Below are positions 4,327 through 18,728 of a DNA stretch of 32,000 bases, one piece after another (within the stretch, counting starts at the first letter, position 1; each line of letters opens with the position of its first letter). The notes below the pieces were generated by a model, which was given only the letters and a program-made list of their open reading frames with translations, did no database searches and was not told the DNA's origin. Origin of the DNA: Candidatus Saccharimonadota bacterium (lineage in GTDB: Bacteria; Patescibacteriota; Saccharimonadia; Saccharimonadales; UBA4665); NCBI GenBank assembly GCA_016699935.1, contig CP064992.1, positions 30,001 through 62,000 on the forward strand, read 5' to 3'. The position numbers and the translations under genes were made by a program.

Positions 4327-4673
4327 ATGTATGGACTTTTCGCAAAATCATATGAATACACCGATGGCCGCTGCTATGTTGACGGTATTGAGCTAGCAGA
4401 TGCTTCGGCATGCACTGCCCCGATATCAATTGCTTTTGGTGTTCTTATTGCTGTGTTAATAATTGGTTTGTTATGTGCTGTTCTATGGGTATTTACACTA
4501 CGCCACCTGTTACGGAATGCTGATGTGTCAGACCGTACAGCCTGGCTAGCCTTTCATATTGTCGCTCCACCTTTTGCAGCCGTGCTATATTTTTCACTGA
4601 CATGCGCGCACACAAAAGAAAAAGTCACAACAAGCTGGCCCTATTGTTCGCTACTAAGTCGCGTACAATGTAA
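4327..4673 (+). CDS. Small membrane protein with a PLDc_N-like (cardiolipin synthase N-terminal type) motif
   Basis: The motif ..VLWVFTLRHLLRNADVSDRTAWLAFHIVAPPFAAVLYF.. is present. As assembled the frame runs on into rarA, to 4842. The real 3' end is uncertain; a frame-0 TAA at 4671-4673 is the candidate if one more base is missing. Confidence 0.45.
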
Positions 4674-4675
4674 GG

Positions 4676-5857
4676 ATGGATACGAGGCCGCTAGCGGAGA
4701 GGATGAGACCGGGAAGCTTGACGATGTTATCGGGCAAGAGCATTTGGTGGGTGCTCAGAAAATCATACGGCAAATTATTGAGCGCAAAGAACCGACGAGT
4801 TTGATACTATGGGGCCGCCAGGTACTGGCAAAACTACTCTAGCTCGGATTATTGCCGCCGAAACAGGTGCCGAGTTCGTCGAAATCAGTGCCGTCACTAG
4901 CGGCAAAGCAGACGTCACAAAAGTCATCGAACTGGCCAAGCAAAATCAGCGGCTTGGGATGCAAACGATACTTTTCGTCGATGAAATCCATCGTTTCAAT
5001 AAAGCTCAGCAAGATGCCTTTCTTCCTCATGTCGAGTCTGGCGTCATCACACTAATAGGTGCGACCACTGAAAACCCGAGCTTCGAGATCATCAACCCCC
5101 TGCTCTCCCGCAGCCGGGTTCTGGTACTCGAACCATTGCAACGAAGTGAAATTATCGCGATTTTACAGAGAGCTGCAAAGCAAATGAAGTTAACTGCCAA
5201 AATTTTGCCGAAAAAATCCGTAGAGCTCTTGGCCGATCTGAGTGGCGGGGACGCCCGCGTGGCACTGGGAAATCTAGAGCTCGCCCAGCGCCTTGCCCTT
5301 GGCAAAACCATCACACCCGATTTGGTCGAAACGGCTGCCCAAACAAAGTTGCCTGGCTACGACAAAAAGGGTGAAACACACTACAATATTATCTCTGCAT
5401 TTATTAAGTCCATGCGTGGCAGCGACCCTACAGCCACACTCTACTACATGGCGCGCATGTTGCAGGCTGGAGAAGACCCAAAGTTTATCGCCCGGCGAAT
5501 GGTAGTTTTTGCTAGTGAAGATATAGGCCTGGCAGCACCAGCTGCGCTCAACCTTGCGGTGTCAACTTTCCTGGCGGTCGAACGAATTGGTTTGCCGGAA
5601 GCAGAAATAAATCTCAGCCACTGCGCGGTGGTTCTTGCGAAATCACTGAAGAGCCGCGAAAGCTACGATGCCTGGGGCAAAGCTAAGACACTCGCTGCAC
5701 AGTACCCCGACCTCCCCGTCCCCTTGGTCTGCGAAACGCTCCCACCAGCCTCATGAAAGACCTTGGCTACGGCAAAGGTGCAAAATGGGAAGCCGGCCAC
5801 AAACACCCCGACGGATTTCTTCCGCCAGAACTGACAATCTACGACTTTTTCAAATAA
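4676..5857 (+). CDS. rarA: Replication-associated recombination protein A (AAA+ ATPase), broken by three 1-nt deletions in this assembly
   Basis: MDTRPLAERMRPGSL | DDVIGQEHLVGAQKIIRQIIERKEPTSLILWG | PPGTGKTTLARII...LPVPL | LRNAPTSLMKDLGYGKG...YDFFK*. Frame changes occur at about 4720 (G run), about 4812 (inside Walker A, TGGGGCCGCC) and about 5728. The frames step 2->1->0->2. Confidence 0.85.
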
Positions 5858-6692: not shown

Positions 6693-6862
6693 TTAAGACC
6701 TCTTGCAGAATAATCCGTATACCCAGAACGTGATGATTTTTGTTTCAAATTGGCAATAGCCGACAAATCGTAACCGCTGTTACGATGCGAAGGTTATTGC
6801 TCTATTTGGGACAAAAAGGGCGTGTTATGGACTACGGAGTTATTTTGTGGGGGAGGTCTTAA
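6693..6862 (-). mobile_element. 170-bp TTAA-bounded palindromic MITE-like element, copy 2
   Basis: TTAAGACCTC...GAGGTCTTAA, a near-identical copy of 1683-1851. The outer TTAA supplies the TAA stop of maf (6859-6861). Confidence 0.6.
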
Positions 6863-7421
6863 TTACCGAACGGTAGCAATAAGTTTTTCAAGAGTTGTAT
6901 AGGGAGGCCGAGGATGGTGTCTTCGGAACCTTCTATGTGATCGAGTAGCGAACCAATGTGCTGAATGGCGTAGGCACCGGCTTTATCTGCATAGTCGCCT
7001 GTTGCCAAATAGGCTTCGACACTAACTTCGTCGTATGGCTTGAGGTAGACCCAGGCATTATCAAAGGTGACCTGTTCGTAGTTTTCGGAATTGCAGATAA
7101 CCGCAAGTGACGAGGTAACTTTGTTCGGTGCGGTAGTAATCAGCCACCACATGCGACGAGCATCGTCGATATCTAAAGCCTTGCCGAGCTGTGTGTTACC
7201 GACGGTCACTATGGTGTCACTGCCGATGACAATCGCCTCTGGGTACTGCTCGGCGACAGCGAGCGCCTTCCCCGACCTAGTTCCATGGCAATCTCTTCAA
7301 CCGGCCGTGATTCATCGAGGTACTCGTCAAAGTCACTCGGCACAACCGTAAACTCAAGCCCCATTTTCTCGAGCAGCTCTTTCCGCCGCGGTGACGTACT
7401 TGCCAGAATGATCTGTCTCAT
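6859..7421 (-). CDS. maf: Maf-like nucleoside triphosphate pyrophosphatase, one frameshift
   Basis: MRQIILASTSPRRKELLEKMGLEFTVVPSDFDE..EIAMELG then ..GKALAVAEQYPEAIVIGSDTIVTVGNTQLGKA...AGAYAIQ... The frame change lies in the C4/G4 run at about 7271-7274. The span is 3n-1. Confidence 0.85.
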
Positions 7422-7438
7422 AGAACGTAGTATACTAG

Positions 7439-8339
7439 ATGTTAATGAGTGTCAGTATAGACATAGAAAAGTTATCGAAACAGTACGCTGGCGCGACAAC
7501 CCCTGCACTTGATAGCTTGACGTTGCGGGTACTGCCCGGGAGGTGTATGGGTTTTTGGGAGCAAACGGTGCCGGCAAAACCACGACCATACGGCTGCTGC
7601 TCAACTTCATCCAGCCTTCCAGTGGCACGGCCAGTATTATGGGCAAAGACATAGTCAAAGATACTGTAGAAGTTAAAAAACATGTCGGGTACCTCTCTGG
7701 CGAGATTGCACTATGGCCAAAGGTTACTGGAAATGAAATGTTTGCCTATCTGAGCAAATTGCAATCCGGGGTGAAAAAGGACTACTTGGCAGAGCTCATA
7801 AGTCGGTTTGAAGCTGAGCCAGACAAGCTCATCGGCGAACTCAGCAAGGGCAACCGCCAAAAGATTGGCATCATTCAGGCACTCATGCACCAGCCAGATG
7901 TACTCATACTGGACGAACCGACCAGCGGGCTCGACCCACTTATGCAGGAAGTGTTTTACGCAACTATTCGTGAAGCCAGTGCCCGAGGTGCCGCCGTATT
8001 TGTCAGTAGTCACAACCTAGCTGAGGCGCAGCGGATGTGCGACCGTGTGGGCATCATCAAACATGGCAGACTTATACATGAACAGGCTGTAAAAAGCGAT
8101 GAAAACCTGGCAGGTACAACCTTTCGTGTCGTCCTCGCTCACCCCAAAGACGCCGAAAAACTCCGCGCTAACCGCGCCCTGAAATTCATTTCGCACGAAG
8201 GTCACACCGTAGTTGTGCAGCCCAAAAGACCATCGCCGAGGCTCTCGCCGTCTTAAGCACCTGTACCATCACGACACTTACTACTGAACAGCTCAATCTA
8301 GAGGATGAATTCCTTGAGTATTATGGAGACGGTGCATGA
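7439..8339 (+). CDS. ABC transporter ATP-binding protein (ABC-2 type), two frameshifts
   Basis: ..LSKQYAGATTPALDSLTLRVLPG | EVYGFLGANGAGKTTTIRLL (Walker A)...LSKGNRQKIGI..LILDEPTSGLD...VVV | AQKTIAEALAVL..LEDEFLEYYGDGA*. Frame changes occur at about 7540 (G run) and about 8221. The ATG at 7445 is an alternative, leaderless-type start. Confidence 0.85.
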
Positions 8340-8379: not shown

Positions 8380-9195
8380 TTGGAAGCTATGAAAGATGTC
8401 GTTCTGTGGGAGCTGAAGAGACGAAGAACTGCATTATTATGGTGGAGCATAGGTAGTGTTGTGCTGGCAGTTTTTATCATGGCGTTATTTCCATCCATAA
8501 GCGACCAAGCTGCCCAGCTCAATAAAGTACTGAACACACTTCCGCCAGAACTACGAGGGCTCAAAACAGGCGGGGCGAAGAGTGTAGACGTAGGTGACCC
8601 TGTTGAGTTTCTTAACGCGCAGGTCTTCTACGCTACCCTACCGATACTTTGGATTATCCTATCGGTGACGCGCGGCGCGGGTATACTCGGACGCGAAGAA
8701 CAAAGCCATACGCTTGAGCTGCTACTAGCGCGGCCAATCAGCCGCGTACGACTGCTCGCTGCAAAGGCCTTGGCTTATACGGGAGAATTTGCCGTTGTTT
8801 GCGGCGCAACGCTACTAGCTATAGTGGTATGCGCACCACTTTTTGAACTTCACGTTGGTAGCGACAAGCTGGCCATCACCACATTGTACACCGCGCTATT
8901 TTCCATGAGCTTTGGCTATATTGCATTTGCGCTGCAAGCAGCAAGTCGGTTTACGAAACGAAGTGCTACCGCGGTCGCCGTGGCAATCGGTTTCGGCGGA
9001 TATATTGTCGCCAGCCTCAGCAGTCTGACCGACTGGCTCAAATGGCCAGTAAAATTCATGCCGTACCACTACTTTGTGCCCCTCGACCCGCTTCAGGGCA
9101 AATCGCCGCGTGGTTTACTGGTTTACCTGGTAGCTGTATTCGTCATCGGTACCACCATTGCCCTCCTCGGTTTCCGTCACCGCGATATTGATTAG
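8380..9195 (+). CDS. ABC-2 type transporter permease
   Basis: Six predicted hydrophobic helices, directly downstream of the ATPase. The ATG at 8389 (MKDVVLWELKRRR..) is the more likely start than the TTG at 8380. Confidence 0.75.
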   Translation: MEAMKDVVLWELKRRRTALLWWSIGSVVLAVFIMALFPSISDQAAQLNKVLNTLPPELRGLKTGGAKSVDVGDPVEFLNAQVFYATLPILWIILSVTRGAGILGREEQSHTLELLLARPISRVRLLAAKALAYTGEFAVVCGATLLAIVVCAPLFELHVGSDKLAITTLYTALFSMSFGYIAFALQAASRFTKRSATAVAVAIGFGGYIVASLSSLTDWLKWPVKFMPYHYFVPLDPLQGKSPRGLLVYLVAVFVIGTTIALLGFRHRDID

Positions 9196-9201
9196 TACCG
9201 T

Positions 9202-9393
9202 CTACTGGTTTGTACGGTCGGCCAAGTCGGCCGCTGCTTGGTACGTCTGTTGAAGCCCGCTTAGTTGTGGCAAAACGAGGCTATCGAAAGCCCAAACAGG
9301 TAGATATGCAAATGTTCCAACTATGGCAGTTACGACTAGGAATCTCATAGCACTAGATGATACCATGATGTGATTCCTAAGAAAATTGCTCAT
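9202..9393 (-). CDS. Small hypothetical membrane protein
   Basis: 63-aa ORF with one hydrophobic helix (MRFLVVTAIVGTFAYLPVWAF). No recognisable family. Confidence 0.35.
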   Translation of the reverse strand: MSNFLRNHIMVSSSAMRFLVVTAIVGTFAYLPVWAFDSLVLPQLSGLQQTYQAAADLADRTNQ

Positions 9394-9409
9394 GCTTCAG
9401 CACATCACT

Positions 9410-9495
9410 ACCTGAGTCTAAAAGCATTCTCCTCTAGTACTTTTGTCATTCCCGCCTTCGCGGGAATGACATCCTTAGGTTCTTAAGACTCAGGT
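9410..9495. mobile_element. 86-bp palindromic MITE-like element (ACCTGAGTCT..AGACTCAGGT family)
   Basis: Terminal inverted repeats ACCTGAGTCTAAAAG / CTTAAGACTCAGGT flank the core hairpin TTTTGTCATTCCCGC-CTTC-GCGGGAATGAC. It belongs to the same family as 11181-11302. Confidence 0.6.
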
Positions 9496-9546
9496 CTCAC
9501 TAGCTTGAGCAATTCTCAAAAAGTTGCTATACTCATCCCTGTTGAT

Positions 9547-9670
9547 TGGGGATTGGCCAAGCGTGAGAGCCGCCAGTGGCGGGTCGCAAGGAAGTCCACT
9601 CACGCAAACTGGTTTGCAAATGTGGGGACTGGCCTGCCGAAGGTAGGTCGAGTCCGATTTGTTCCCCGCA
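9547..9670 (+). other. Unassigned structured segment that starts with an exact 17-nt copy of the tRNA-Gln 5' end
   Basis: TGGGGATTGGCCAAGCG (9547-9563) equals 9696-9712. It is followed by the hairpin GCGTGAG(9561-9567)...CTCACGC(9599-9605), which carries a GCAA tetraloop followed by GGAAG, and it ends ..GTTCCCCGCA. I could not fold it into a cloverleaf by hand. Confidence 0.25.
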
Positions 9671-9695
9671 GTACGTTTTAAGTCAAATATGCCAA

Positions 9696-9768
9696 TGGGG
9701 ATTGGCCAAGCGGTAAGGCACTGGGTTCTGGTCCCAGGATCGGGGTTCGAATCCCTCATCCCCAGCCA
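9696..9768 (+). tRNA. tRNA-Gln (anticodon CTG), CCA encoded
   Basis: Acceptor stem TGGGGAT/ATCCCCA, D arm GCC-AAGCGGTAAG-GC, anticodon arm CTGGG-TTCTGGT-CCCAG, T loop GGTTCGAATCC, discriminator G plus CCA. It is close to the E. coli tRNA-Gln layout. The T stem has one mismatch as assembled. Confidence 0.85.
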
Positions 9769-9771
9769 TAC

Positions 9772-9808
9772 AAAAAGACTCGGGTTTACTCGGGTCTTTT
9801 TGTATGTT
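9772..9808 (+). terminator. Intrinsic terminator after tRNA-Gln
   Basis: A 13-bp stem AAAAAGACTCGGG-TTTA-CTCGGGTCTTTTT with a T-rich tail. Confidence 0.5.
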
Positions 9809-9820
9809 TGAGAGGGGGAC

Positions 9821-9901
9821 TATAGAACGAGGTTCGGCGTATGTGAGCGAAGCGAACGGAGAAGCCCATCAAAGATGGGCGCTATCCCTCATCCCCAGCC
9901 A
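9821..9901 (+). repeat. att-like repeat U1, ending in the exact 18-nt 3' end of tRNA-Gln
   Basis: TATAGAACGAGG..GCCCATCAAAGATGGGCGCT+ATCCCTCATCCCCAGCCA. The last 18 nt equal 9751-9768. About 90% identical to U2. Looser homology extends back to 9769. Confidence 0.7.
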
Positions 9902-9923
9902 ATTTTGGAGTATAATAGTTATT

Positions 9924-10004
9924 ATGGAACAATGGATTTTTGGATTTATTATAGGTCTTTGTGTCGGCGTTGGATCAATGGCTGCATACAAATCTAAAGA
10001 ATAG
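9924..10004 (+). CDS. Candidate 26-aa hydrophobic peptide
   Basis: MEQWIFGFIIGLCVGVGSMAAYKSKE. TATAAT at 9911-9916 lies 7 nt before the ATG, a leaderless geometry. Below normal gene-calling length. Confidence 0.3.
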   Translation: MEQWIFGFIIGLCVGVGSMAAYKSKE

Positions 10005-10064
10005 TCCAGAGCACTGTTTGGGTATTAGACCCATACGCTCAGCCATGCATGTTAGGATAGATAT

Positions 10065-10169
10065 ATGTTTAAGTCAGATAAAAGATCATTCATCCAAAAG
10101 AAAAAGGAAGTGATAATTGCGGTAATTTCCGCAGTCTTCGGCTTTTTGATAGGATCGTCAATCCACTAA
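10065..10169 (+). CDS. Candidate 34-aa tail-anchored peptide
   Basis: MFKSDKRSFIQKKKEVIIAVISAVFGFLIGSSIH. AGGA lies 8 nt upstream. The upstream motif GCATGTTAGGATAG recurs at 10383-10398. Confidence 0.3.
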   Translation: MFKSDKRSFIQKKKEVIIAVISAVFGFLIGSSIH

Positions 10170-10257
10170 ATCTGGTCGCGTTCTATCCCCATTCGGTCAT
10201 CCTTATAAAAAAGCTCGAGATTACTCGAGAATATTTGCAGGATTGAGCTTTGTGGAT

Positions 10258-10338
10258 TATAGAACGAGGATAGGCGTATGAGAGCAAAGCGAACGGAAAA
10301 GCCCATCAAAGATGGGCGCTATCCCTCATCCCCAGCCA
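10258..10338 (+). repeat. att-like repeat U2, ending in the exact 18-nt 3' end of tRNA-Gln
   Basis: Same unit as U1, and the last 18 nt (10321-10338) equal 9751-9768. It is preceded by a terminator-like segment (10205-10257) homologous to 9769-9820. Confidence 0.7.
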
Positions 10339-10412
10339 GATGCGACAGTTCAGTTTCAGGCTCATAGCACCTGTTATACTATTGCATGTTTAGGATGAGT
10401 CGTTGAAAGTAA

Positions 10413-10832
10413 GTGAACGAAAAATTGGGTTACTGTAAAGCTAATAGTATAATTACAGTTAATGATGAATCTAAAAAATACTCGAAACTTGCTCGTATTT
10501 ATACTATCTCGTCTATTTTTATCGGACCATTCATTATTCTGCTTGGCACTGGATTTACTCGGGGTGGCGGTGATTATTGTGATTCAGTTTACTATTTATC
10601 TGATGGCACAATTGATCCACGACGTATCACTGAATTTAATAACGCACAAATATTTCAGGTTTCTGGTGCAAGCCTAATGCTGGTTTTGGGGCTTGGTATT
10701 ATTATATATACAATATTTAGCATCAAAAAAGCATCAAAAATCAATATCTGGCCATTGCTAGGCGTAATCATTATGATGTTTGGGTATATTTTAGTTATCT
10801 TATCATCTGGCAAGGGAACCCAAAGCTGTTAG
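10413..10832 (+). CDS. Hypothetical membrane protein (139 aa) in a low-GC patch
   Basis: GTG start and three hydrophobic helices. The AT-rich composition contrasts with flanking housekeeping genes. No recognisable family. Confidence 0.5.
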   Translation: MNEKLGYCKANSIITVNDESKKYSKLARIYTISSIFIGPFIILLGTGFTRGGGDYCDSVYYLSDGTIDPRRITEFNNAQIFQVSGASLMLVLGLGIIIYTIFSIKKASKINIWPLLGVIIMMFGYILVILSSGKGTQSC

Positions 10833-11068
10833 ATCGCACTACAAAAATAGGTTAAACGAAAGCCCGTATAATTATTTAAACCTGTATGCTCAGCCATGAA
10901 AATTGCTTTAGACTTTAAAGCCTGGAGCATTTTTCATTGTGGAGCTGCTAACGATTCGAACACCCGAATACGAAGCATGAGTGGTGAACACTGCTAATGG
11001 CAGTCTGTAAGGAAATCTTCCGACGAAAGCTGTGCTTTCTGCGCGCAGTTTCGGGCCGGCGGAACGTC

Positions 11069-11092
11069 GGTCGAATCCCTCACCCCCAGCTA
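11069..11092 (+). repeat. Degenerate tRNA 3'-end remnant (T loop plus acceptor)
   Basis: GGTCGAATCCCTCACCCCCAGCTA compared with GGTTCGAATCCCTCATCCCCAGCCA in tRNA-Gln. No matching 5' half was found upstream. Confidence 0.45.
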
Positions 11093-11180: not shown

Positions 11181-11302
11181 ACCTGAATCTCAAAACTGTC
11201 TCCCCTGTAATTTTGTCATTCCCGCGAAGGCGGGAATCCATTTCATATATCTGGATCCCAGCCTTCGTTGGGATGACATCCTAGGGGTTTTGAGATTCAG
11301 GT
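11181..11302. mobile_element. 122-bp palindromic MITE-like element (same family as 9410-9495, with an extra internal hairpin)
   Basis: TIRs ACCTGAATCTCAAAAC / GTTTTGAGATTCAGGT. The core is TTTTGTCATTCCCGCGAAGGCGGGAAT plus GGATCCCAGCCTTCGTTGGGATGAC. The ORF-track peptide ..VIPAKAGIH.. is just its translation. Confidence 0.6.
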
Positions 11303-12689: not shown

Positions 12690-12795
12690 AACAACAAAAA
12701 CCAGCACTAAGCTGGTTTCGCTACACATCCCAAAACTTCACATCACAATTGACCGCAGATTGAGCTGTCTCGCAAGCTTCACCTCAAACTGCTAG
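12690..12795 (-). ncRNA. Candidate small RNA (about 100 nt) bounded by a near-consensus promoter and an intrinsic terminator
   Basis: On the minus strand, a promoter lies at 12801-12830. The transcript contains the hairpin GCAGTTTGAG..CTCAATCTGC and ends in AAACCAGC-TTAGT-GCTGGTTT plus TTGTTGTTG (12689-12718). The only reading frame is a 14-codon GTG ORF. Confidence 0.3.
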
Positions 12796-12800
12796 TCTTT

Positions 12801-12830
12801 ATTATATCATACATTTTTCTGTGCAATCAA
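12801..12830 (-). promoter_or_regulatory. Sigma70-like promoter (TTGATT-N18-TATAAT)
   Basis: Read on the minus strand: TTGATT (12830-12825), an 18-nt spacer, then TATAAT (12806-12801). Confidence 0.4.
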
Positions 12831-12920
12831 TCTATGCAATATTGCCGTTGTGATTTATATAACACTAAATCTTACCCCTGTTGTTTTACAGAAAAACATA
12901 TTGTATAGTAAGTATTTTGA

Positions 12921-12949
12921 ATAAAAAAGAGGCGTTACGGTAACGCCTC
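12921..12949 (-). terminator. Intrinsic terminator of the response-regulator gene
   Basis: On the minus strand, GAGGCGTTAC/GTAACGCCTC form a 10-bp palindrome followed by TTTTTTAT, 25 nt after the stop codon. Confidence 0.6.
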
Positions 12950-12973
12950 GGTTTCCTATTTGATGAATATAGC

Positions 12974-13444
12974 TTACTGTGGAGCCTCGTGAAATGGCAC
13001 GTCGGCAAGAGTAGCGCCAGTGGGAGGTGTTTCGGTCGTAACAGGCTCAGGTTGCATATCTGGACGTAGGATGCCATTGACAATCCTGTCTACCGTATCT
13101 TCTGTCATCATTGCCTTCACCGAATAACCAGAGATTCCCAGATCCCGCAGGTCTTTTGGCGCCTCTGTCTCATTTAAATTTGAAATGACATATACTGGAA
13201 TGTTCTTGCCCCAATCGGTTGCTCGCATTGTTGAAAGCAGCTGGCCGCCCGATATATCTGGAATCATGAGGTCAAGCAGAACAAGGTCGGGAATTTCCTT
13301 CTGGATGAAATACAGCCCAGTTATGCCATTGTAGGCAACAAAACAAGTGTAACCAAGCAGCTCCAGGCGTGTTTTGTATATTTCAGCAAGAGCAGTGTTA
13401 TCTTCAACGATGATGATTTTCTGGGAGTAATTTTGAGGATTCAT
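12974..13444 (-). CDS. Stand-alone response regulator (CheY-like receiver domain only)
   Basis: ..KIIIVEDNTALAEIYKTRLELLGY...PDLVLLDLMIPDISG...PVYVISNL..SVKA.. carries the receiver-domain acidic pocket, phospho-acceptor Asp and Lys motifs. There is no output domain and no adjacent kinase. Confidence 0.85.
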   Translation of the reverse strand: MNPQNYSQKIIIVEDNTALAEIYKTRLELLGYTCFVAYNGITGLYFIQKEIPDLVLLDLMIPDISGGQLLSTMRATDWGKNIPVYVISNLNETEAPKDLRDLGISGYSVKAMMTEDTVDRIVNGILRPDMQPEPVTTETPPTGATLADVPFHEAPQ

Positions 13445-13528
13445 ATGGTTGATTGTATTACACCGAATACGCTTTTGCTAGATTAAAATGAATGTCATAT
13501 ACTGAGGCTACGGCTAAGGAGGATAAAT

Positions 13529-14585
13529 ATGCCTGAGGTAAACGTTAAATCATGGGGTTTGATTGGTCGAGGTAACATTGGTCGCGAGCTTGAGCGACAG
13601 ATCGGGCAAGAACGCGTTGCTAACCGGCTCGGGCTAGAGCCAAAGCCCCGCATGGTAGTAGATATCAACGGTATTACTGATGCTGACGGCAATGTTGATT
13701 CCACAACACAATTTGCGGATGCAGACATTCCTGATGTCATGTTTCTTGCCATCCCCTCCGGTGGAGATGGCACACTGGCTTACGGCTATGTTTCGACCAT
13801 CCTTGCGAAAGGTAAAATGGCCGTCACGGCCGAGAAGGGCGCACTGTCGCATTTCTTCCAGGATCTTAAATCTGCCTCTGATAACTTCACCCGGTTTGGT
13901 ATAACTGCGACCGTAGGTGGAGGTACCCGCTTGCTCCGCGTAGCCGAGCAGTACAACATAGACCAAGAAAACATAACCGAAATGCATGCCGTATTGAATG
14001 GCACCATGACGGCCATCATGAGCGAAGTTGCGCCTGCCAGTGGTAGCGGAATCTCACTTGAAAGTGCCGTCGAGCATGCTGTTAAAGCTGGCTACGCTGA
14101 ACCTGGCGCCGACTCCCCACAGGCTGTACTACGCGGCGAAGCCGAGGGTGACATTCCAAAGAAAAATGTCTATCATATACAACATTTTGGGCTTAGGCAA
14201 AACGATTGTTACCCCTGAGATGCTTGCCTTTTCTCTGTCCGATGATGATATCAACACCGCAGTCAGCGCCACGGAGCCACACCGCTTTATCGTCTCTTTC
14301 TATCCTGCCGCTAGTGAAAGTGATCCAGGGTCACGCCTAGGTGGGTTCGACATATCCGTTGATGGATGGCGACTCGTAGCCGGCTTCCGACCACTCAAAG
14401 GAAATCCGCAATTCGCCAGCTTTGCCCCGCTGACCGCCGCTGGGAATGGGCTCGTTGTTGGGCTCGGGCCGAACCTTAGCGACGGCGTTTACACCGTGAC
14501 GGGGCCAGGAGCCGGTGTCGAGCCGACCGTAAATGCCATGATAGACGATTACGTCCGCCTCTCACGGCTGGAGACAGCCCGATGA
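13529..14585 (+). CDS. hom: Homoserine dehydrogenase (divergent), one frameshift
   Basis: N-terminal Rossmann motif GLIGRGNIGRE, then ..ATVGGGTRLL.., ..LNGTMTAIMSE.., ..AGYAEPGADSP..GEAEGDIPKK | MSIIYNILGLG... The frame change lies in the A5 run at about 14163-14167 (a +1 type). It shares an operon with lysC and asd. Confidence 0.75.
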
Positions 14586-18299: not shown

Positions 18300-18600
18300 A
18301 ACTGCGGCCGTTTCGGCCTCATGAAAATTATCGCGTTAGCGATATAACTAGAGACGGCCATGCGGAGGCTCACGGCTCCAATGTTGTCATGTTTTACAAC
18401 TTCCGAAAGGCGGCGCGACTTGTTTGAATGGAGGCTAGTATTGCCGGTGGCAATACTAGCCGGAGTGAGTTGTCGCGTCGGTTGTAAAACTGGACAACAT
18501 TTGACCGAAGATGGAGCTTGTGGCCTGGTTTTTGGTCCAGGCCTTTTTGGCAGCAAAAGGCATGGTCGCCTGGCCGGGGCGAAACCCGGCATGACAACTG
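18300..18600 (+). ncRNA. Candidate structured RNA element, copy A (homolog of 25675-25990)
   Basis: Conserved blocks and helices are shared with copy B, and the stems show compensatory changes: 18391-18400/18481-18490, 18411-18419/18472-18480, and the hairpin 18434-18460. There is no conserved ORF. G-T pairs fit a plus-strand transcript. Confidence 0.4.
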
Positions 18601-18630
18601 AAATATGAAACAACGTCAGAAATGCCGTTT

Positions 18631-18728
18631 GGATTCCCGCCTGCGCGGGAATGACAAGGGTAGATTCTTCACTTCGTTCAGAATGACACGATGTGGACAT
18701 ATAGATGCTGAAATAGATTCAGCATGAC
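18631..18728. repeat. Three tandem REP-like hairpins, each ending in ATGAC
   Basis: GGATTCCCGC-CTGC-GCGGGAATGAC; GATTCTTCAC-TTCG-TTCAGAATGAC; GATGCTGAA-ATAGA-TTCAGCATGAC. Their translation gives the familiar ..VILNEVKNL../..FPRRRES.. artefact peptides. Confidence 0.6.

Follow-up and report, generated by a model that had tools for sequence, protein, structure and literature searches.

The elements of the staphylococcal cassette chromosome (SCC) lie at the 3' end of a conserved single-copy gene, leave this gene active and can pile up in tandem. SCC, including SCCmec, and the Enterococcus cassette chromosome are moved by large serine recombinases (LSRs) of the CcrAB type at the 3' end of rlmH and are bounded by short direct repeats of their target. 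They comprise recombinase-less members that need a recombinase supplied in trans (PMC6222049). The locus described here, positions 9696-11092 of a 32-kb window (the whole stretch of DNA that was analysed) from contig CP064992.1 of a Candidatus Saccharimonadota bacterium, consists of a tRNA-Gln gene followed by several copies of the 3' end of this tRNA, and would functionally be closest to such composite islands. On balance, it is probably an accretion array built by LSR-type recombination at the hexamer CAGCCA and anchored on the 3' end of tRNA-Gln. The original prediction, made from the letters of the window, had proposed serial site-specific insertion at the tRNA end without an integrase. 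This was largely right, given the insertion hot spot and the LSR-bearing junctions found in relatives, although it was incomplete in that it did not include a family of folded units. The idea of stacked cassettes itself holds, and what surprises is the undescribed, widely conserved folded module found alongside the attachment site.

As in SCC, a recombinase-less member of the array (10339-10896) shares its ends with an autonomous LSR element, found on contig L092 (related loci are cited by their L numbers), and the accessory cargo of these loci comprises restriction-modification, Fic/DOC, PLD nuclease and APH genes. Unlike in SCC, the target is a tRNA gene and not rlmH, the host is a bacterium of the Candidate Phyla Radiation (CPR) with a ~1.2-Mb genome, the cassettes are as small as 133-560 bp, the LSRs are single, diverse proteins rather than CcrA/CcrB pairs, and the arrays contain a strand-specific folded module of ~100-150 nt that would regenerate the exact 18-nt target, for which we know of nothing comparable in SCC. 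Saccharibacteria, like other CPR bacteria, have tiny genomes, and little is known about how accessory genes enter and leave them. In this context, the locus suggests a dedicated, self-renewing landing pad at the single tRNA-Gln gene, where genes for restriction-modification, Fic/DOC, nucleases and resistance-type functions pile up and replace one another.

The window, to which the recombinase and unit searches in the source genome were confined, holds one tRNA only, tRNA-Gln(CTG) at 9696-9768, as detected with ARAGORN and Rfam. Its last 18 nt, hereafter the core (ATCCCTCATCCCCAGCCA), had been predicted to recur downstream, and the copies at 9751, 9884-9901 and 10321-10338 are all exact at these coordinates, while a fourth copy at 11075-11092 carries two mismatches. 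For these four copies, 0.01 matches are expected by chance, and their number was reached in 0 of 100 shuffles. The longer, degenerate tRNA remnant proposed at the distal end was retrieved as well, 9726-9766 matching 11050-11090 at 76% over 41 nt, from the anticodon loop onward. In the same line, the two units predicted to be about 90% identical, U1 and U2, are direct repeats of 85 nt (9817-9901 and 10254-10338), 93% identical and 437 nt apart, and with the homologous hairpin noticed before each of them, the repeat of hairpin, unit and core extends over 141 nt at 82% identity (9763-9901 and 10198-10338). The elements of the proposed layout are therefore present, but its division into three segments gives way to five modules, c1 to c5, every one of which is bounded by CAGCCA, a hexamer that occurs six times in 9763-11092 (as CAGCTA at the last site). 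The target gene is intact, tRNA-Gln being whole and the modules being bounded by CAGCCA-ended repeats. The features of the array are as follows.

9696-9768, plus strand: tRNA-Gln(CTG), from ARAGORN and Rfam; its last 18 nt (9751-9768) form core 1, the putative primary attachment site.
9767-9806, no strand assigned: H1, a bidirectional terminator-type hairpin directly after the CCA, with 19-nt arms (89%) and a stable fold.
9769-9901, plus strand: c1, made of H1, U1 and core 2, delimited by its CAGCCA boundaries.
9803-9901, plus strand: U1, a type-A structured unit (covariance model, 26.3 bits, E 1e-4 over the window; 82% to the module of L032).
9902-10045, plus strand: c2, with a hydrophobic 26-codon open reading frame (ORF; 9924-10004) and, as its end, a diverged T-arm copy (pseudoT), GGGTATTAGACCCATACGCT followed by CAGCCA (10020-10045).
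10046-10338, plus strand: c3, with GCATGTTAGGATAG, a 34-aa ORF (10065-10169) and U2, which ends in exact core 3 (10321-10338).
10339-10896, plus strand: c4, with the left end GATGCGACAG, a membrane-protein ORF of 139 aa (10413-10832) and the right end TTAAACCTGTATGCT followed by CAGCCA.
10897-11092, plus strand: c5, with hairpin H3 (10888-10945, overlapping the preceding CAGCCA) and a type-B unit with the degenerate core 4 (11075-11092, ATCCCTCACCCCCAGCTA).

The array thus amounts to three units, U1, U2 and one of type B, and to three short cargo segments whose ORFs have 26, 34 and 139 codons. In U1, the 5' arm complements the core and the P2 helix is reduced; then come GAGCGAAGCGA, the P4 hairpin GCCCATC-AAA-GATGGGC and the exact core 2 (9884-9901). 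Besides its ORF and U2, c3 contains a strongly decayed T-arm-like stretch (~10170-10204) and a decayed hairpin, H2 (10205-10236). The type-B module c5 is homologous, at 76-77%, to sequences of L072, L127, L143 and L094, and what follows 11092 is native flank, the first ~20 nt of which still resemble the flank in the L001 lineage. The claim that the oldest, most distal copy is the most decayed was borne out, decay growing with the distance from the tRNA: damage is seen in H2 and in the P2 stem of U2, and core 4 departs from the tRNA at two positions, while the cores of U1 and U2 are exact; units with decayed cores also lie distally in L024, L048 and L014. As for the short echoes between segments, GCATGTT(T)AGGAT(A/G)AG is found by reading at 10046 and 10385, and GCTCAGCCATG is present at 10025-10047 and 10876-10898 (83%). 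The (C/T)GCTCAGCCATG echoes are, however, more than recurring motifs, as they are cassette ends, namely pseudoT copies (10020-10045 and 10871-10896).

That the tRNA end is polymorphic had been left to be examined in related genomes. Strain variants of one relative, on six contigs (the P0009 lineage, L001-L006), have the same upstream genes and the same tRNA and diverge immediately after CCAGCCA(A), with three different downstream contents: a 494-aa LSR with HTH and Replic_Relax, a copper/DUF305 island, or a 1153-aa protein. In the syntenic relatives L020, L024, L058, L074 and L077, differing units follow the tRNA. As the contents diverge right after CCAGCCA(A), this group has an insertion hot spot at the 3' end of tRNA-Gln.

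With respect to the enzyme, the absence of an integrase noted for the array extends to the whole 32-kb window, in which no LSR and no Xer-like ORF was found, the Xer screen being of low sensitivity since it used phmmer with one XerD query. In relatives, recombinases were nonetheless found at the junctions, and these are serine recombinases, not tyrosine integrases. In L002, L004 and L005, an LSR with HTH and Replic_Relax lies just downstream of the tRNA. In L029 and L070, an element of ~5 kb is located between the tRNA and a distal exact core. Its LSR (Resolvase, Recombinase and Zn_ribbon_recom domains) is at the tRNA-proximal end, the 3' end of the gene overlapping the end of the tRNA; the cargo is a HaeIII restriction-modification system in one locus and a GDSL lipase with APH in the other; and after the cargo come a pseudoT (..CAGCCA(A)), a terminator-type hairpin (H), a unit and the exact core. 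L092, a 5763-nt contig with a 44-nt terminal overlap, is a circle or tandem repeat and carries, in this order, pseudoT (ACTAGACCCATATGCTCAGCCA), H, unit, core, GATGCGACAG..., a 107-aa ORF, a 427-aa LSR, NUDIX, methyltransferase and JmjC. The LSRs of these loci, all single proteins, are diverse, with 25-38% identity among them. Apparent LSR matches in L047 and L120 were discarded, being antisense translations of tRNA.

The window shares both junctions of L092, i.e. the core followed by GATGCGACAG, and the end ..TAGACCCATAYGCTCAGCCA. More precisely, the junction of core 3 with GATGCGACAG at 10339 matches L092 over 33 nt at 97% and is identical to L131 and L136 over 28 nt, while pseudoT has 2 differences in 22 nt with that of L092. 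The GATGCGACAG left end also stands behind a core or a tRNA-like end in L074, L126, L131 and L136, and the GGGTAYTAGACC..CAGCCA end, seen in L092, also closes cassettes in L040, L041, L059, L100, L115, L123, L126 and L145. Given these shared termini, 10339-10896 is therefore a miniature derivative with the ends of an LSR element and only the 139-aa ORF inside. This ORF has homologues at 73% and 60% and otherwise a weak DUF6056 match only; it was rejected as a marker of tRNA-Gln arrays, since its homologue in L084 is not associated with a tRNA and that in L086 is enclosed by other repeats. In L086, which stems from another metagenome, direct repeats of ~60 nt that are unrelated to the core (CTACCTTGCCTGGG.AGGTTCTATGCGTACAC..., at 195-255 and 880-940) flank the 73%-identical homologue, which suggests that the gene also travels in cassettes of another kind.

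These junctions bear on the simplest explanation of the array, namely local tandem duplication of the tRNA 3' flank by slippage or unequal crossing-over at the 18-nt repeats, without any recombinase and with the intervening segments brought by unrelated events. Short direct repeats can indeed promote duplication, and U1 and U2 are 93% identical direct repeats only 437 nt apart. Such a process would, however, leave unexplained the GATGCGACAG and pseudoT ends that bound cassettes in many unrelated genomes, the LSR elements lying exactly at the junctions and the third unit of a different type, so that we consider it very improbable.

If the array was instead built by LSR-type recombination, LSR-moved elements would insert at the CAGCCA hexamer that ends the tRNA, the incoming DNA restoring the tRNA with the few bases that it brings. 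The other end of the element would be a look-alike of the tRNA 3' end, either a pseudoT (GGGTAYTAGACC..GCT-CAGCCA) or a folded unit of ~100-150 nt with the exact 18-nt core. Because it ends in an exact core, usually then followed by a hairpin like the tRNA terminator, the unit would re-create a usable target, in the manner of SCC composite islands. The tRNA and every unit core would thereby be open to new elements, so that the array could grow while older junctions would decay. The cassettes of the window would be either internal-deletion relics or non-autonomous cassettes movable by an LSR encoded elsewhere. We infer that an LSR makes these junctions, that unit cores act as targets and that the crossover takes place at one of the candidate junctions of L092.

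The units themselves turned out to form a family. Cores not preceded by the invariant A of the T loop, i.e. displaced cores, were looked for outside real tRNAs, yielding 74 stretches in one-genome-per-species contigs (against ~13 expected by chance, as estimated from the size of the collection) and 77 further stretches in metagenome contigs, some DNA being common to both sets. All 151 loci were thus chosen for an exact displaced core, so that their counts do not measure the frequency of units among all Saccharibacteria; nearly all come from Saccharibacteria, with Peregrinibacteria and Gracilibacteria in addition, and almost all from the CPR. A same-strand tRNA-Gln is present in 77 of the 151, and in 69 of these 77 the next exact core ends at most 300 nt from the tRNA (median 176). 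In the recurrent layout, tRNA-Gln is followed by H, a bidirectional hairpin of the terminator type, then by a structured unit with its exact core, behind which a further hairpin is often seen. At least two displaced cores are found in 11 loci, either as tandem units or as units separated by small cargo. Arrays are seen in L041, L048, L050, L065, L100, L133 and L155, with a near-identical pair of units flanking cargo in L050, and the cargo near units in other loci includes Fic/DOC, PLD nuclease, Ham1, DUF2779 and an AAA_18 kinase-like protein. In L100, three consecutive cassettes of ~630 nt (351-1650), each ending in GGGTACTAGACCCGAGTGGCCAGCCA, have no folded unit and form a pseudoT-only array.

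One assumption about the U unit has to be revised in this light. The shared arm, thought to derive from a private attP arm, belongs to a widespread family of modules with a covarying, strand-specific fold, mostly without cargo or a nearby recombinase. The opposite concern, that the unit might be a generic dispersed repeat, does not apply either, since in ~980 kb of loci the units occur solely in arrays next to tRNA-Gln cores. The U-arm pattern CCCATCNNNGATGGGNNNNATCCCTCATCCCCAG gave 0 matches in viral, genome and metagenome collections, which lack the genome of the window and its close kin. No Rfam family matches the units of the window and of seven other loci, the sole match being the real tRNA, and ARAGORN and Rfam (at gathering and relaxed thresholds) likewise led to the rejection of tRNA, tmRNA and other known RNAs as candidates. 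In literature searches, no paper was found that connects Saccharibacteria or Patescibacteria to insertion at tRNA-Gln or to serine recombinases. With more than 50 covarying members and no Rfam match, the unit represents an undescribed, widespread structured element.

The 5' arm of the unit is an inverted tRNA-Gln 3' end, TGGCT..GGATGAGGG..(C)GAACCCC, which can pair with its own core (P1) or, via H, with the preceding core. Behind the arm, P2 (GAACCCC-hairpin-GGGGTTC) precedes GGGTTCGGYG, the motif with the highest conservation. Next is P3, in which an outer stem leads via CGCAG / GAGCA to a distal hairpin, and the unit closes with the short hairpin P4 and the core. On the basis of six units and a hand-drawn structure, a covariance model was built that detects, at E<0.01, 33 units among the genome loci, including U1 of the window (26.3 bits) and units with decayed cores. 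In the resulting alignment, 82.8% of cells are paired versus 68.2% in shuffles, and double-sided changes number 168, versus 52 in shuffles (0 of 500 attain 168) and 14-32 after sliding the partners by 1-3 columns; covariation is seen in all inner helices. Likewise, 24 units from metagenome loci, none of which was used in building the model, show 80 double-sided changes versus 21.5 in shuffles and 9-18 in slid controls. Both alignments are biased in favour of the model because they were fitted to it; the controls with slid partners and the number of different pair types nevertheless argue that the covariation signal is real. Since the 3' strand of P1 is kept invariant by selection of the loci, this evidence covers the inner helices and not P1. 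Plain MAFFT with RNAalifold on 20 units returned almost no structure, the hand-built seed and the covariance model being needed. The attempt to derive the P2 helix from U1 and U2 alone failed as well, because U2 has uncompensated changes and the pair therefore does not support P2.

Within the window, only U1 scores as a unit by this model. U2 was not recovered by it on the plus strand, which is consistent with decay (GGTTCGG to GGATAGG). A weak match at 18419-18556 (15.4 bits, E 0.056 with filters off), ~75 nt from a third palindromic element, is probably due to chance. Two other architectures exist beside type A. In type B, represented by 10946-11092 and by the body of a unit upstream of the tRNA (9564-9692), a T-stem-like GGGGU/AUCCC pairing closes three hairpins, and 15 of 38 pairs of the consensus fold show a compensatory change among n=6 sequences, which were taken by BLAST as a regex search was too noisy. 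In the third, found in Nanosyncoccus genomes, an antisense core, a loop of 4-6 nt and a core follow each other.

The loops of the units point to the strand that folds. Among 57 units (7.8 kb), GCGAAGC is found 19 times versus 0 for its complement GCTTCGC, GC-GNA-GC 34 times versus 0 for its complement, and CGNAG 134 times versus 29 for CTNCG, while the background is symmetric; the folding strand is therefore the tRNA-sense strand. The GCGNAGC motif forms mini-hairpins that are extraordinarily stable as DNA and much weaker as RNA, and is known from the single-stranded DNA (ssDNA) priming sites of phage G4 and of RSF1010 ssiA (PMC13037366). Moreover, each unit is preceded by a strong intrinsic terminator, without room for a promoter. 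Because the loops are of this DNA type and a terminator precedes each unit, a role in ssDNA on the tRNA-sense strand is favoured, and our favoured guess is that the fold is a signal read in ssDNA on this strand. The units resemble the single-strand initiation (ssi) and single-strand origin (sso) signals, such as the phage G4 origin, RSF1010 ssiA and plasmid sso, in being strand-specific, multi-hairpin modules of ~100-200 nt with GCGAAGC/CCGAAGG mini-hairpins (PMC13037366). They differ from them in that no replication or primase gene is linked to the locus, and in that ssi and sso signals are not tied to a tRNA end.

To the way in which the 151 loci were chosen, several points have to be added that weigh against an array built by LSRs. 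An LSR is within reach in few of these loci (L029, L070, L092 and, as a fragment, L032), most units standing alone beside the tRNA. In L032, the stretch of H, unit and core is 82% identical to H1, U1 and core 2 of the window while the intergenic surroundings are unalignable; the neighbouring response-regulator gene is 78% identical to 12696-13464 of the window, and such conservation of the module looks more like vertical inheritance under selection than like recent insertion. Known LSR attachment sites, attP and attB, are duplexes of ~40-50 bp that recombine at a central dinucleotide. To our knowledge, they require no folded arm of 100 nt, and LSRs normally do not reuse attL or attR. The terminal overlap of L092, an indirect sign of excision or integration products, might stem from a tandem array and not from a circle, and two attP candidates are present on this contig, the junction of unit and core with GATGCGACAG or that of pseudoT with H, both of which fit periodic arrays: the order tRNA, cargo, pseudoT, H, unit and core of L029, L070 and L036 favours the former as a single event, and the pseudoT cassettes of L100, which lack units, speak for the latter. 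Units are absent from the syntenic L001-L006 lineage, and a unit at 9547-9692 lies upstream of the intact tRNA, where insertion solely 3' of the tRNA does not explain it. The counts of G·U versus A·C in the helices reveal a weak strand bias only (37:19 and 31:22). Finally, look-ups of exact proteins (154 aa, 139 aa and P0001) matched no other contig, the best relative being at 72% at the protein level; since no close strain variant of the genome of the window was thereby obtained, the claim of mobility is limited to the loci of relatives.

Part of these observations would be accommodated if the units were host genes for a structured non-coding RNA derived from tRNA-Gln, transcribed in the same direction as the tRNA and ending in its ...CCA, inherited vertically and occasionally duplicated, LSR elements merely using the tRNA end and shuffling them. 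The exact core would then be kept for processing by RNase P or the CCA enzyme, or for mimicry of the acceptor end, to take these as examples. Strong covariation in P2, P3 and P4, a folding strand that is the sense strand, and a terminator-type hairpin often lying behind the cores are what one would expect of such genes, as are the occurrence of the family in three CPR phyla, the conservation of the window and L032 modules to the level of a coding gene, and the many units that stand by tRNA-Gln with neither recombinase nor cargo. On the other hand, the strong intrinsic terminator H between the tRNA and each unit leaves no room for a separate promoter, C-GNA-G triloops, far more stabilising in DNA than in RNA, dominate while GNRA tetraloops are few, and no Rfam family or tRNA model fits. 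Nor would an RNA gene account for units on the LSR-bearing L092 contig and as near-identical pairs around the cargo of L050, for the loss of the core in distal units or for the absence of the unit in the syntenic L001-L006 lineage. Taken together, a non-coding RNA is a doubtful explanation, although it keeps some credit; if the unit is an RNA, it would be a new class of tRNA-derived RNA specific to CPR bacteria.

Accretion by LSRs also has to be distinguished from the better-known genomic islands and prophages that use tyrosine integrases at tRNA genes. As in these, the 3' end of the tRNA is repeated at each insertion, the tRNA is restored, accretion is serial and older repeats decay. The present arrays differ by a serine recombinase at the junctions, by miniature elements and by a covarying folded arm in place of arm-type protein sites. 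One may nonetheless suppose that the cores are scars of tyrosine-integrase prophages or islands at the T loop and 3' end of tRNA-Gln, each core being an attR whose element is mostly deleted and each U a leftover P arm. The repeat starts inside the T loop, which is the classical crossover position of tRNA-targeting integrases, and the distal copy at 11050-11090 reaches 41 nt. In addition, two viral contigs from IMG/VR, L087 and L088, carry a tyrosine integrase beside a 33-nt copy of the tRNA-Gln 3' end. However, these attP copies come without a unit, and a displaced core is found in none of 2.9 million viral contigs. By the same XerD phmmer screen, with its low sensitivity, no tyrosine recombinase was seen near the units or in the window, but only in those two unit-less viral contigs. 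Neutral scars would moreover not retain a covarying fold or an exact 18-mer across species, the remnants are tightly clustered in size (median 176 nt) unlike random deletions, and the junction motifs match LSR elements. We therefore consider such scars unlikely. L087 and L088 attest a second, classical integrase system targeting the same tRNA.

A further comparison concerns integrons. Like integron arrays, the locus has small, mostly recombinase-less cassettes in series at one primary site. Like attC sites, the unit is conserved in structure over sequence and folds on one strand, and its two ends would form an imperfect stem with a variable or branched terminal structure, the modules varying in length between the plain hairpin of the Nanosyncoccus type and a four-way junction. 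Integrons have IntI, attI and Pc, all of which are missing here; upstream of the tRNA, there is an ABC transporter instead, and the XerD screen found no tyrosine recombinase in the window. Besides, the cargo genes of other loci are not all oriented alike, the stem repeats the sequence of a tRNA end, and the recombinase is of the serine type. No R or L box consensus was noticed on reading the units, no attC model having been run. We know of no serine recombinase that acts on folded single strands. A bolder version of accretion by LSRs, which we regard as a rather long shot, would make the unit a new attachment-site module, a nucleic acid folded in a strand-specific way, most likely ssDNA, whose ends pair into a duplex tRNA-Gln 3' end, in an integron-like cassette system of CPR bacteria that is anchored on tRNA-Gln and where serine recombinases act in trans and the target is regenerated at each insertion. 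If the fold is indeed read on ssDNA or by a serine recombinase, it would extend the known abilities of serine-recombinase systems, and genome engineering could take an interest in it as a small natural module that regenerates its target.

Outside the array proper, the following features surround the tRNA gene.

9381-9517, no strand assigned: left palindromic element, resembling a miniature inverted-repeat transposable element (MITE), with the core ATTCCCGCCTTCGCGGGAAT, defined by its inverted repeats; weak FtrB/WsnRNA46-like matches only.
9505-9533, plus strand: sigma-70-like promoter candidate, TTGAGC-17-TATACT, TG-extended; a consensus match only, with a count not above that of shuffles.
9547-9692, plus strand: first 17 nt of tRNA-Gln (exact) fused to a type-B unit body and a decayed tRNA 3' end; from a repeat search, the homology to the type-B unit of L072 being judged by eye.
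11181-11302, no strand assigned: right palindromic element, MITE-like, defined by inverted repeats and bounding the array on the right.

The exact 17-nt copy of the tRNA 5' end that had been reported upstream of the gene (9547-9563) is thus part of a fused type-B unit. The same fusion, with about two-thirds of the tRNA, lies upstream of an intact tRNA-Gln in L038 (3068-3240, oriented), and the intact tRNA-Gln may itself be carried on a cassette. The candidate promoter is at the inner edge of the left palindrome and, as it sits 14 nt before 9547, the type-B leader and tRNA-Gln may form one transcript. The MITE-like palindromes around ATTCCCGCGAAGGCGGGAAT bracket the whole array, a third, partial copy being found 7 kb away at 18630-18669. 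Their Rfam resemblance to WsnRNA46/FtrB is weak only, and the left element (9381-9517) is probably outside the mechanism.

Upstream, the gene order is RarA, Maf, NUDIX, ABC ATPase, ABC permease and tRNA-Gln, and is conserved in one relative. The ABC-2 permease just upstream (8380-9195) has its best matches in Candidatus Saccharibacteria / Saccharimonadales, the nearest relatives being ~72% identical. RarA (4327-5756), Maf (6859-7421), the ABC ATPase (7439-8256) and a homoserine dehydrogenase (13529-14585) are split into overlapping ORFs, which reflects frameshifts arising from long-read indel errors or real pseudogenes. The window contains no S-adenosylmethionine (SAM) riboswitch, whereas such riboswitches are matched upstream of the tRNA-Gln locus in L074 (3825-3932, 52 bits, above the family threshold) and in L065 (2999-3102, 39 bits, below it).

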